A DNA stretch of 12,369 nucleotides from the IMG/VR virus record IMGVR_UViG_2698536477_000001. One strand, given 5' to 3'. This stretch comes from a virus. Its lineage: Duplodnaviria > Heunggongvirae > Uroviricota > Caudoviricetes. Positions 3,797 to 10,990 of this stretch are shown here, piece by piece; the first letter of the stretch is position 1, and the number at the start of each line of letters is the position of its first letter. The notes under the pieces are model-generated. The model had not been told where the DNA came from, searched no databases, and saw nothing but the letters and a program-made list of their open reading frames with translations. The position numbers and the translations under genes are program-made.

Positions 3797-4120
3797 ATGG
3801 CAAAGAATTTTGTAGAAGAAGGAAAAACGGTGGCGATTGTTGCCAGTGCAGCCATCAGCAGCGGAGATCTGGTGCAGGTGGGCGATGTTTTTGCGGTGGC
3901 GCTGACCGATATTCCACAGGGTGAAACAGGCGACGGCATGACCGAAGGTGTGTTTATGCTGCCTAAGCTGAAAACGGATGACATGAAAACGGGTAAGAAG
4001 GTTTATCTGAAGTCCGGAAAAGTTCAGCTGACTAACAGCGGCTCTGATCCGCTGGTCGGGGTTGTCTGGGCAGATGCCGGAACCAGTGCAGAAGAAGTGC
4101 CGGTAAAACTCAATGTCTGA
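3797..4120 (+). CDS. DUF2190-family small head protein (predicted capsid decoration/cement-type protein), 107 aa
   Basis: ATG 3797 has a GGAG Shine-Dalgarno at 3787-3790. The motif pattern ...GDLVQVGDVFAVALTDIPQGETGDGMTEGVFMLPK...GKKVYLKSGKV... matches the conserved DUF2190 pattern usually encoded next to phage capsid genes. The ORF-track start at 3752 is an upstream in-frame extension without an RBS. Confidence 0.7.
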   Translation: MAKNFVEEGKTVAIVASAAISSGDLVQVGDVFAVALTDIPQGETGDGMTEGVFMLPKLKTDDMKTGKKVYLKSGKVQLTNSGSDPLVGVVWADAGTSAEEVPVKLNV

Positions 4121-4388
4121 TCCCTTTTCCCGGCTGGCAGCGCGTATGGATGCTATCACGGTCAGAAAGATGGGAAAGACAGCCTCGATTAATGATGTCG
4201 ATATGACTGTGATCCCGGGAGAAACACTGGCAGAGCTGAATGCTCTGTCCGGACCTGCGGTCTCTCTGGTGGTGTTTTCTTCGGGATACCGCCCACGGCG
4301 CGGGGATCGCGTTGTTTATGACGGACAACAATGGACGGTCACACGGCATGAACGTTTTAACGGTAAGCCAATGATCTTTATTGAGTAA
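4113..4388 (+). CDS. Small putative head-tail joining / head completion protein, 91 aa (positionally equivalent to lambda FII)
   Basis: ATG 4113 overlaps the preceding stop (ATGTCTGA), indicating translational coupling. Size and position between head and Z-U-V tail genes fit a connector protein. Function is assigned by position; family resemblance is weak. Confidence 0.5.
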   Translation: MSDPFSRLAARMDAITVRKMGKTASINDVDMTVIPGETLAELNALSGPAVSLVVFSSGYRPRRGDRVVYDGQQWTVTRHERFNGKPMIFIE

Positions 4389-4399
4389 AGAGGTGTGGG

Positions 4400-4978
4400 A
4401 TGAAGGGGCTTGAGAATGCCATCCGTAATCTGAACAGCCTTGATACCCGTATGGTGCCACAGGCCAGCGCATGGGCGATAAACCGTGTGGCACAGAAAGC
4501 GGTCTCGGTCGCCACCCGGCAGGTTGCCGGGAATACCGTTGCGGGAGATAACCAGGTGAAAGGGATCCCCCTGAAACTGGTACGTCAGCGTGTCCGGGTG
4601 TTTAAAGCCAGTCCGTCAGGAAAAATGACGGCCAGGATCCGCGTTAACCGGGGCAATCTGCCCGCTATTAAGCTGGGGACAGCCCGGGTCAGACTGGCCC
4701 GGCGTGGTGGAAAACTGCAGTACCGTGGCAGTGTGCTGAAGGTGGGTAAATATCTTTTCCGGGATGCGTTTATTCAGCAACTGGCGAATGGTCGCTGGCA
4801 TGTGATGCGGCGTATTGATGGCAAAAATCGTTACCCCATTGATGTGGTGAAAGTCCCGCTGTCCGGACCGCTGACACAGGCATTTGAAGATGCCCGCGAC
4901 CGCATTATTGCTGCGGAAATGCCGAAACAGCTGGGGTATGCACTGAAACAACAACTGAGGTTATGGCTGACCCGATGA
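4400..4978 (+). CDS. Z: Tail completion protein, lambda gpZ homologue, 192 aa
   Basis: AAGAGG Shine-Dalgarno about 6 nt upstream. The protein has the same length as lambda gpZ and shares blocks with it as remembered (KGLE.A..NL, AINRVA, IKLG.ARV, GAFIQQL.NGRWHVM.R..GKNRYPIDVVK.P, LGYAL..QLR). Confidence 0.9.
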   Translation: MKGLENAIRNLNSLDTRMVPQASAWAINRVAQKAVSVATRQVAGNTVAGDNQVKGIPLKLVRQRVRVFKASPSGKMTARIRVNRGNLPAIKLGTARVRLARRGGKLQYRGSVLKVGKYLFRDAFIQQLANGRWHVMRRIDGKNRYPIDVVKVPLSGPLTQAFEDARDRIIAAEMPKQLGYALKQQLRLWLTR

Positions 4979-5376
4979 ACCGACATACACAAATCCGCCA
5001 GGCCGTACTGGCACGCCTTCGGGAACAGTGTGGAGACAGCGCCACGTTTTTTGACGGGCTTCCGGCATTTATTGATGCGCAGGAACTGCCTGCCGTGGCG
5101 GTGTGGCTGAGTGATGCTCAGTACACCGGAAAAATGACGGATGAAGATGACTGGCAGGCTGTTCTGCATATTGCTGTCTTCATCCGGGCACAGGCACCGG
5201 ATTCAGAGCTGGATATGTGGATGGAGAGCACCATTTTCCCGGCCCTGAATGATATACCGGCACTTTCCGGACTCATCGACACCCTGATCCCTCTCGGTTT
5301 TAACTATCAACGTGATAATGAGATGGCCACCTGGGCGATGGCGGAAATCACGTACCAGATCACGTACACGAATTAA
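4963..5376 (+). CDS. U: Tail terminator protein, lambda gpU homologue (137 aa from ATG 4963; alternative start ATG 4975 gives 133 aa and an ATGA overlap with the Z stop)
   Basis: Shares blocks with lambda gpU as remembered: ATFFDG.PA, FPAVAV.L, AEYTG, WQA.LHI.VF, AQ.PDSELD.WMES, DIPALS.LI, TY.ITY. Confidence 0.9.
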   Translation: MADPMNRHTQIRQAVLARLREQCGDSATFFDGLPAFIDAQELPAVAVWLSDAQYTGKMTDEDDWQAVLHIAVFIRAQAPDSELDMWMESTIFPALNDIPALSGLIDTLIPLGFNYQRDNEMATWAMAEITYQITYTN

Positions 5377-9900: not shown

Positions 9901-9953
9901 TTATGCAACAGCAGGCCCGTGATGGTGGTCGGTTAAGTGGAGCATATCGGTAA
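6888..9953 (+). CDS. H: Tail tape measure protein, lambda gpH homologue, 1021 aa
   Basis: GGAGG Shine-Dalgarno at 6875-6879. The N-terminus MDQIANLVIDLGIDAAEFKNEI resembles lambda gpH (...GDLVVDLSLDAARFDEQ...). The protein has very long Ala/Gln/Glu/Arg-rich coiled-coil stretches, an internal hydrophobic Gly-rich segment (MMLGGVIGGIAASVYGLG), and a Gly-rich C-terminal region. Position is between G-T and M. Confidence 0.93.
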   Translation: MDQIANLVIDLGIDAAEFKNEIPRIKNLLNGAASDAERSSARMQRFMERQTQAARQTMQAASSAATAASVHAQTVEKSAQAHERMAREVEQTRQRMEALSQKMREEQAQAMALAEAQDKAAAAFYRQIDSVKQASAGLQELQRIQQQIRQARNSGGIGQQDYLALISEVTAKTRVLTQAEEEATRQKVAFIRQLKEQATRQNLSSSELLRAKAAQLGVSSAAEVYIRKMEQAGKATHSLGLKSAAARQEIGVLIGELARGNLGALRGSGITLANRAGWIDTLMSPKGMMLGGVIGGIAASVYGLGKAWYDGQKEGEEFNRQLSLTGHYAGVTAGQLWTLSRAISGNGITQHAAAGALAQVVGSGAFRGNDIGMVARAAAQMERSVGQSVSDTINQFKRLKDDPVNAAKALDNELHFLTATQLEQIRVLGDQGRSSDAARIAMSALAEETGRRTADIDNNLNALGSTLKYLSDLWSRFWDAAMNIGREDSLDEQIAALQEKVSRAKRLPWTASSSQVEYDQQRLNDLQEKKRQKDLQDAKEQAERNYQEQQKRRNAENAALNRMNETEAARHQREIARINSMQYADQAVRDAAIQRENERYEKALASGKKKTREPRNDEATRLLLQYSQQQAQVEGQIAAARQSAGIATERMTEAHKQLLALQQRISDLDGKKLTADEKSVLARKDELIQALTLLDVKQQELQKQTALNELKKKTIQLTSQLAEEERAQRQQHDLDIATVGMGDQQRQRYQVQLSLRQKYQQQLEQLRRDSEQKGTYNTDDYRKAEQALTESLNRQLNENRRYWQQLEVVQGNWKNGVLRAFQDFTVDADNTAGTAEQVFSSAFSNMGNGLATFVTTGKLNFKSFTSSVLSDMAKILAQATMMKSIKGIGSVLGFDLSSLSLNANGGIYQSADLSRYSGTVVNRPTFFAFAKGAGVMGEAGPEAILPLRRGADGKLGVVADIGGSGMAMFSPQYNIEINNDGTNGQIGPAALKAVYDLGKKAAADFMQQQARDGGRLSGAYR

Positions 9954-10282
9954 TGGAGACGTTTCACTGGAAAGTGCGCCCGGATATGAATGTGGTATCA
10001 GAGCCGAAAGTGGTGACAGTGAAGCTTGGCGATGGTTATGAACAGCGTCGTGCGGCGGGACTGAATAACCAGTTGTCGACTTACAGCGTGACGATACGTG
10101 TTCGTAAATGTGAACACCCATCTTTAAAAGCCTTTCTGGAACGGCACGGTGGCGTCCGCGCATTTCAGTGGACGCCACCTTATGACTGGAAGCCGATCAG
10201 GGTGGTTTGTCGTAAATGGTCGGCAAGCGTGGGGGCGTTGTGGGTAACCATAACGGCAGATTTTGAACAGGTCGTGGCATAG
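9953..10282 (+). CDS. M: Tail tip assembly protein, lambda gpM homologue, 109 aa
   Basis: Start overlaps the H stop (TAATG). Shares F.WKV.P.M.V.S.P.V..V.?GDGY.QR...GLN..L.TYSVT..V...E, FLE.HGG...F.WTPPY.W..I.V.C.KWS and EFEQVV with lambda gpM as remembered; same length. Confidence 0.93.
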   Translation: METFHWKVRPDMNVVSEPKVVTVKLGDGYEQRRAAGLNNQLSTYSVTIRVRKCEHPSLKAFLERHGGVRAFQWTPPYDWKPIRVVCRKWSASVGALWVTITADFEQVVA

Positions 10283-10291
10283 GAGGCTCTG

Positions 10292-10990
10292 ATGCAGGAT
10301 ATTCCACAGGAAACACATCATGAGACGACACGCCTCACTCAGTCAGCCCAGGTGGTGCTCTGGGAAATCGATCTGACAGAGGTCGGTGGTGAACGTTATT
10401 TTTTCTGTAATGAGCAGAACGAAAAAGGTGAGCCGGTTACCTGGCAGGGGCGGCAGTATCAGGCATACCCCATTCAGGGGACGGGATTTGAACTGAATGG
10501 CAAGGGCAGTGCTGCCCGTCCGACACTGACGGTTTCTAACCTGCACGGCATGGTCACCGGGATGGCGGAAGATCTGCAGAGTCTGGTCGGCGGAACGGTG
10601 GTCAGGCGTAAGGTTTACGCCCGTTTTCTGGATGCGGTGAACTTCGTCAACGGAAACAGTGACGCCGATCCGGAGCAGGAGGTGATCAGCCGCTGGCGCA
10701 TCGAGCAGTGCAGCGAACTGAGCGCGGTGAGTGCCTCTTTTGTACTGTCCACGCCGACGGAAACGGACGGTGCCGTTTTTCCGGGGCGCATCATGCTGGC
10801 CAACACCTGCACCTGGACCTATCGCGGTGACGAGTGCGGTTATCACGGTCCGGCGGTCGCGGATGAATATGATCAGCCGACGTCCGATATCACGAAGGAT
10901 AAATGCAGCAAATGCCTGAGCGGCTGTAAGTTTCGCAATAACGTCGGCAACTTTGGCGGCTTCCTTTCCATTAACAAACTTTCGCAGTGA
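10292..10990 (+). CDS. L: Tail tip protein, lambda gpL homologue, 232 aa, with C-terminal cysteine cluster
   Basis: AGGAGG Shine-Dalgarno at 10281-10286. The sequence (MQDI.QET..., VVLWEIDLTEVGGERYFFCNEQNEKGEPVTWQGRQYQ.YPIQG.GFELNGKG, C-terminal CTWTYRGDECGY..., KDKCSKCLSGCKF) is very close to lambda gpL as I remember it. Confidence 0.95.
   Translation: MQDIPQETHHETTRLTQSAQVVLWEIDLTEVGGERYFFCNEQNEKGEPVTWQGRQYQAYPIQGTGFELNGKGSAARPTLTVSNLHGMVTGMAEDLQSLVGGTVVRRKVYARFLDAVNFVNGNSDADPEQEVISRWRIEQCSELSAVSASFVLSTPTETDGAVFPGRIMLANTCTWTYRGDECGYHGPAVADEYDQPTSDITKDKCSKCLSGCKFRNNVGNFGGFLSINKLSQ

Follow-up and report, generated by a model that had tools for sequence, protein, structure and literature searches.

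Gene organization of the late operon

The window analyzed here is the entire 12,369-bp short-read draft contig LPUM01000073.1 (assembly GCA_001609295.1). Its plus strand carries one continuous phage late operon, which runs from the 3' end of an IS66-family transposase gene to the first 25 nucleotides (nt) of gene J. We read it as the late operon of a common Escherichia coli lambdoid prophage of the mEp460/cdtI/Ayreon type, which consists of three blocks and whose tail tip was exchanged recently by recombination (probability about 0.9). The first block is a head module of the type found in Gifsy-2 and in prophages of enterohaemorrhagic E. coli (EHEC) (246-4388), which has no lambda counterpart except a distant portal. 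The second is a tail shaft from Z to M (4400-10290), homologous to that of lambda but old and divergent (25-56% amino acid (aa) identity), with Gifsy-1 and Gifsy-2 as its nearest relatives. The third is the tip (about 10352-12369), which takes in L, K, I and the J start and is about 95% identical to lambda in nt sequence save for a patch of about 280 nt in I. The features of the window are as follows.

1-245, plus strand: right end of an IS66-family insertion sequence (IS), with the 3' end of tnpC (stop of the open reading frame (ORF) at 215) and a terminal inverted repeat ending in GTTAACGCTTAC at 245
248-1738, plus strand: portal gene, truncated at its 5' end; Phage_portal_2, E=6e-82; an in-frame GTG is left at 248
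1752-3710, plus strand: ClpP-like prohead protease/major capsid fusion in one 652-aa ORF; CLP_protease at aa 23-168, Phage_capsid_4 at aa 357-649
3734-3753, plus strand: terminator-like hairpin and T run after the capsid gene; a rho-independent terminator is annotated likewise in mEp460
3797-4120, plus strand: DUF2190/Phage_cement_2 head decoration (cement) protein; PF09956, E=9e-21
4113-4388, plus strand: 91-aa Gifsy-2-family protein, final gene of the head module; PF13856, E=1.8e-17; PDB entry 2pp6 (Gifsy-2), E=1e-19
4389-4399, no strand: head/tail module boundary, intergenic between the 91-aa gene and Z
4400-4978, plus strand: Z; Minor_tail_Z
4975-5376, plus strand: U; Phage_tail_U
5388-6131, plus strand: V; Phage_TTP_12, with a Big_2 domain at the C-terminus
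6152-6175, plus strand: terminator-like hairpin (7 G-C pairs) and T run after V; a terminator is annotated in mEp460
6192-6578, plus strand: G, tail assembly chaperone; Phage_TAC_2
6587-6916, plus strand: T, tail assembly chaperone; Phage_tail_T; frame open from about 6550
6888-9953, plus strand: H, tape measure protein of 1021 aa; TMP_2, TMP_4, Tape_meas_lam_C
9953-10282, plus strand: M, tail tip protein; Phage_min_tail; 70% aa identity to Gifsy-1
10289-10352, no strand: mosaic junction zone, covering the M/L boundary and the first 20 or so codons of L
10292-10990, plus strand: L; Phage_tail_L
10996-11739, plus strand: K; JAB/MPN and NlpC/P60
11637-12284, plus strand: I; Lambda_tail_I
11837-12113, plus strand: divergent patch of about 280 nt in I, about 57-63% nt identity to lambda with flanks at 95-96%
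12345-12369, plus strand: first 25 nt of J, aligning to the start of lambda J at 15505; contig end

All ORFs other than the portal are intact, and each Pfam family assignment rests on a strong match. The contig breaks off in repeated DNA at both ends, in the IS66 element on the left and in the conserved I-J junction with the start of J on the right. In the head module, one ORF for the ClpP-like protease and the capsid is followed by the DUF2190 gene and the Gifsy-2-family gene, which is the arrangement of the Gifsy-2/EHEC-type head. The ClpP domain of the fusion matches ClpP structures (E=1e-15); RefSeq places the start of this gene at 1683 and names its product 'ClpP-like prohead protease/major capsid protein fusion protein'. 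The 91-aa protein probably connects head and tail as an analogue of lambda FII. A sub-threshold match links it to Phage_attach, the FII family (E=0.0018), and it is without a match in Gifsy-1 or lambda. The lambda head is built from other protein families (S49 protease C/Nu3, D, E, FI and FII). The portal is a distant member of the lambda portal Pfam family, with 23% aa identity to lambda B over 42% of its length. BLASTP finds no significant lambda match for the ClpP-capsid fusion, the DUF2190 protein or the 91-aa protein, so these head genes are of a non-lambda type, as the initial annotation had supposed.

Stepwise identity to lambda

The tail genes Z, U, V, G, T, H, M, L, K and I belong to the same Pfam families as those of lambda (NC_001416) and stand in the lambda order, Z-U-V-G-T-H-M-L-K-I-J. 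Per-gene comparisons covered lambda, VT1-Sakai, Gifsy-1, Gifsy-2, PhiR49_1 and PhiR49_2, and together with the nt comparison to lambda they include what the initial annotation had proposed, namely identities gene by gene to lambda, Gifsy and EHEC prophages; the boundaries found are sharp. The aa identity to lambda is 50% for Z, 54% for U, 55% for V, 33% for G, 38% for T, 25% for H, the lowest among the tail genes, and 56% for M. It is 93% for L, 96% for K and 78% for I. The partial similarity to lambda noted earlier for Z, U, V and G is thus borne out. The same source had placed M, L, K and I much closer to lambda, which is right for the last three and wrong for M, whose identity is like that of Z, U and V. 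M is part of the divergent shaft module and lies outside the lambda-like tip block.

The nt profile is equally uneven. In a global alignment to lambda with 100-nt bins, Z-V show about 50-74% identity and G-H are not really alignable (30-55%). Identity is 57-72% at 9800-10300, 87-99% at 10400-11800, 50-70% at 11800-12100 and 87-98% from 12100 to the end; it averages about 95% over 10352-11836 and about 96% after 12114. Maximum chi-square analysis places change points at 10352 (61 to 95%), 11837 (95 to 57%) and 12114 (63 to 96%), and a weaker one at 9815 (48 to 64%). In permutation tests the observed statistic was reached in 0 of 200 permutations for each point. The alignment puts the main switch to lambda-like sequence about 20 codons into L. 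Similarity had been predicted to rise as a gradient toward the tip. The profile is instead a series of steps with its minimum in H, and the main jump lies at 10352, just beyond 10300, where the region first marked as mosaic ended. A close relative of lambda itself (Lambdavirus) would show high nt identity throughout the structural region, which the window does not: it reaches about 95% at 10352-11836 and 12114-12369 only, Z-V stand at about 60%, G-H cannot be aligned and the head genes are unrelated.

The head-tail boundary

Similarity of Gifsy-1 (NC_010392) to the window starts at 4399, one base before Z. The Gifsy-1 tail genes Z-I are the closest relatives outside E. coli (55-82% aa and 69-74% nt identity, even through I; 80, 68 and 77% aa for Z, U and V), whereas its head is of the lambda type, with homologues of B, C, D, E, FI and FII. 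VT1-Sakai (AP000400) has a head related to that of the window, with 78% aa identity for the portal, 72% for the ClpP-capsid fusion, 50% for the cement protein and 57% for the 91-aa connector. Its nt similarity is 71-78% over 246-4122, and protein similarity continues to the end of the 91-aa gene. The shaft genes of VT1-Sakai are as distant from those of the window as the lambda genes are (24-57% aa). Gifsy-1 with a lambda-type head on this tail, and VT1-Sakai with this head on another tail, show that heads and tails can reassort at 4389-4399.

Gifsy-2 (NC_010393) shares its head type, its tail type and the order of the tail genes with the window. All its genes are homologous at 42-74% aa identity (45-70% for the head proteins, with 65% for the portal and 60% for the cement protein), and it is uniformly diverged, without the 95% lambda-like tip block. 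In a set of 5426 complete E. coli genomes, 1801 (about a third) have one place that covers 80% or more of the window. The head segment (1752-4388) occurs in 2126 genomes at 2988 places and the H segment (6900-9800) in 1870 genomes at 2070 places; with at least 80% coverage the numbers are 1816 and 1826 genomes. These near-equal counts, together with the 1801 genomes that hold the whole window, mean that head and shaft travel together in E. coli. Since head and shaft are co-inherited and collinear with Gifsy-2 at similar divergence, the boundary at 4389-4399 is old in this lineage.

This evidence bears on a different history, in which a foreign head was recently joined to a lambda-like tail and similarity decays gradually from a single crossover. 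Such a history would fit head genes without lambda counterparts beside tail genes that have them, and it would fit Gifsy-1, in which the same tail type is joined at 4399 to a lambda-type head. We consider it very unlikely, because identity to lambda is non-monotonic along Z, U, V, G, T, H, M and L, the tail shaft is not lambda-like in nt sequence (33-65%), and head and shaft show similar divergence from Gifsy-2 in both blocks. The claim that recombination made one or more joins somewhere between head module and tail tip is supported. A sharp, statistically clear jump that extends to synonymous sites lies between them, but the head/shaft junction is not a fresh join, as Gifsy-2 has the same one.

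Probable recent exchange of the tail tip

The jump at the tip is seen best at synonymous sites. At third codon positions M agrees with lambda at 48% and the stretch of L codons 1-20 at 45%, as against 87% for L codons 21-232 and 91% for K. For L against Gifsy-1, aa identity is 75% and third positions agree at only 46%. The contrast between M and L/K argues that the lambda-like block reflects recent common ancestry, that is, exchange, beyond mere protein constraint. Without any recombination, the likeness of L-K-I to lambda would have to come from stronger purifying selection on tip proteins within one vertically inherited tail operon. L, K and I are indeed the best-conserved tail proteins against every reference, and the shaft reaches just 24-57% aa identity to VT1-Sakai. 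Selection of this kind is nevertheless an extremely improbable sole cause, and we reject it on the third-position contrast, to which the Gifsy-1 comparison of L adds. The transition to lambda-like sequence also spans only a few tens of nt inside L, and the patch within I drops to 57% nt identity. Furthermore, in PhiR49_2, whose head is of the HK97 type and whose shaft is unrelated, L-K-I matches the window at 94% nt identity from exactly 10289 (93, 96 and 98% aa for L, K and I).

The points at which similarity begins fall close together: 10289 for PhiR49_2, 10340 for VT1-Sakai, whose nt similarity (76%) returns there and whose L-K-I proteins are 62-86% identical, and 10352 for lambda. The shaft/tip boundary at 10289-10352 thus seems, from sequence comparison, to have been used recently and repeatedly. 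In Gifsy-2 a lom homologue and the virulence gene sodC (31238-32400) lie exactly between M and L, at window position 10283-10291. It is conceivable, and we put it forward only tentatively, that the M/L junction with the first 20 or so codons of L is a preferred and repeatedly used point of exchange or insertion in lambdoid tails.

Of the surveyed genomes, 4380 carry the L-K-I block (10352-11836), which occurs at 14,812 places in all; the median per genome is 3 and the maximum 15. The tip block is common, at 90-100% identity, to several lambdoid prophage types that differ elsewhere, and these types often reside together in one genome. Mosaicism by recombination among co-resident lambdoid prophages is the standard model, for which the HK97/HK022 comparisons by Hendrix, Casjens and colleagues are said to be an example. 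For the recent exchange of the tip we infer homologous recombination between such phages or prophages within the conserved block as the most likely mechanism. It would move tip modules, and with them the downstream receptor-binding ends of J, between lineages, and crossovers would end up at or just within gene L. The multi-copy tip block would also explain why the contig stops 25 nt into J.

Several points count against this reading or narrow it. Exchange may have run in either direction and in one or several events, and lambda itself may be the recipient. Conservation among all lambdoid phages is by nature higher in L, K and I than in Z-M (75-86% aa identity even to Gifsy-1 and VT1-Sakai), and part of the contrast between tip and shaft reflects constraint. 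The window contains no Chi sites and gives no direct support for RecBCD/Chi-stimulated exchange there. Finally, the junction between the IS and the portal lies at a contig end in the short-read draft and comes from a single assembly.

Relatives with the same arrangement

Phages mEp460 (NC_019716), cdtI (NC_009514), Ayreon (MF807953) and vB_EcoS-569R4 (ON470598) have an identical set and order of genes. The genes of the window correspond one for one to the mEp460 annotation and are collinear with it across the structural operon. Over 246-12369, nt identity is 99.0% to vB_EcoS-569R4, 98.7% to Ayreon, 98.5% to mEp460 and 97.5% to cdtI. The match is a single high-scoring segment pair for vB_EcoS-569R4, Ayreon and mEp460, and mismatches to mEp460 are spread evenly along it. 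All four phages differ from the window in having the W gene and the portal start intact where the window has the IS66-family end, and their J C-termini are unlike each other. Every phage or prophage match to the window starts at 246.

E. coli JNEC-KY172 (NZ_AP045168), a closed genome, carries a prophage that is collinear with 246-12369 and shows 0 mismatches over 12,124 nt. The portal gene of this prophage is without an IS, unlike that of the window. The prophage is flanked by genes of the Qin locus (cspB/F/I, essD, rrrQ, rzpQ, gnsB, tfaQ and pinQ), so prophages of this type can reside at the Qin locus in complete genomes. Prophages in further complete E. coli genomes reach 100% identity to 246-12369, and many others come near it. 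That the mosaic or its ends are an assembly artefact, a chimeric contig from co-resident prophages, has a negligible chance and is rejected: both contig ends do lie in repeats (the IS66 element and the conserved J start) and most E. coli genomes carry L-K-I more than once, but 246-12369 matches the closed JNEC-KY172 genome without a mismatch and independently sequenced phages at 98.5-99%, and the sole part unique to the contig is the IS/portal junction.

The initial annotation had held that uniform identity to a single reference phage across the region would speak against mosaicism. Such uniformity is found with mEp460 (98.5%) and vB_EcoS-569R4 (99.0%), while the patchwork relative to lambda stays. 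Because identity to single reference phages is uniform, the arrangement is that of an established lineage with many sequenced members and does not represent a new mosaic. Lambda and the window remain about 95% identical in nt sequence in L, K, most of I and the J start, and differ in central I. Ayreon is a viable temperate siphovirus (PMC5764929), and its announcement makes no statement on mosaicism or receptor (PMC5764929). The mEp460 literature offers passing mentions only, mostly in genome or prophage surveys.

J and receptor use

The lambda-like start of J had been taken to imply lambda-like receptor use of the LamB type. The J sequence in the window is limited to its first 25 nt, with the rest on another contig, and the matching prophage of JNEC-KY172 lends this implication no support. 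Its J (21100-24498 in the JNEC-KY172 sequence compared) has 1132 aa, the same length as lambda J, and is about 97% identical to lambda J as far as roughly aa 950, where single blocks of 50 aa range over 90-100% (mostly 96-100%). Beyond aa 950 identity falls to 78% and then to about 40% over the last 130 to 180 or so aa. The C-terminus of the JNEC-KY172 J is 99% identical to J of some Shiga toxin (Stx) phages, 54% to mEp460, 51% to Ayreon and 50% to lambda. The C-terminal region of lambda J is the seat of LamB specificity. A J that is lambda-like to aa 950 with a diverged C-terminus points to a further mosaic boundary inside J, and the receptor cannot be inferred from the lambda-like start.

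Truncation of the portal gene by an IS66-family element

The left 245 nt of the window are 95-99% identical to annotated ends of IS66/ISEc23-family transposases in E. coli genomes. The C-terminus of the tnpC product matches DDE_Tnp_IS66_C (PF13817, E=3.9e-17). The reverse complement of 230-245 is GTAAGCGTTAACGGAG, which has the form of an IS66-family terminal repeat starting GTAAGCG. The contig holds the right end of the element; the left end and the target duplication lie beyond it. In comparison with the mEp460 portal start (2830-2848), the IS follows nt 16 of the intact portal gene. At the junction 245/246 the element abuts codon 6, and the portal loses its ATG, its first 5-6 codons and its ribosome-binding site, and the IS66 end cuts the operon off from W and the terminase genes. 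The virion genes are consequently not all intact, and since the IS66-family element has removed the portal start, head assembly by this copy of the prophage would probably depend on outside help. The exact IS66/portal junction is absent from the IMG/VR viral contigs, the GTDB representative genomes and the 5426 complete E. coli genomes. In a translated search, the Gifsy-2 record contains a stretch 54% identical to the C-terminal fragment of TnpC, which suggests an IS66-like remnant.

Other features of the tail genes

T lies in the -1 frame with respect to G, and this frame continues open through the G stop. The canonical GGGAAAG heptamer (lambda G GGA AAG) is not present in the G/T overlap (6550-6590). 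The sole candidate slip site there is CCG GAA AAG at about 6563-6571, shortly before the G stop; by analogy with lambda, a G-T fusion would be made by -1 frameshifting at this putative site.

The tape measure protein H has 1021 aa in the window and 853 aa in lambda. We dropped the idea that the longer protein specifies a longer tail, as the Ayreon tail of about 120 nm (PMC5764929) does not fit simple lambda scaling. The last 140 or so nt of H (9815-9953) are closer to lambda, with a 60-nt island at about 90%, and the remaining H is at about 35-45%. This conservation of the C-terminus may reflect constraint from contact with the conserved tip proteins.

The patch in gene I is a small within-gene mosaic replacement, and I of the window is like the PhiR49_2 version (98% aa). 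In K, the lambda reference NC_001416 is without one G at about 14266/7 (about 11130 in the window), which is present in the window, mEp460, PhiR49_1 and the re-sequenced lambda KT232076. Lambda K is annotated short, at 199 aa, because this G is absent from the reference; the full protein has about 247 aa with JAB/MPN and NlpC/P60 domains.

Implications for lambdoid tails

The region is a case of textbook lambdoid modular mosaicism and matters little beyond correct annotation. Receptor specificity is not readable from the conserved 5' part of J. If the M/L junction is a preferred point of exchange, a lambda-type tip (L-K-I-J) would be plugged onto shafts with only about 56-64% identity in M and in the H C-terminus. 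This would imply an M-L interface of unusual tolerance, or else a universal adaptor in the form of a short conserved segment from the H C-terminus and the L N-terminus. The multi-copy L-K-I-(J) repeat breaks short-read assemblies, and it is a ready substrate for recombination between prophages.

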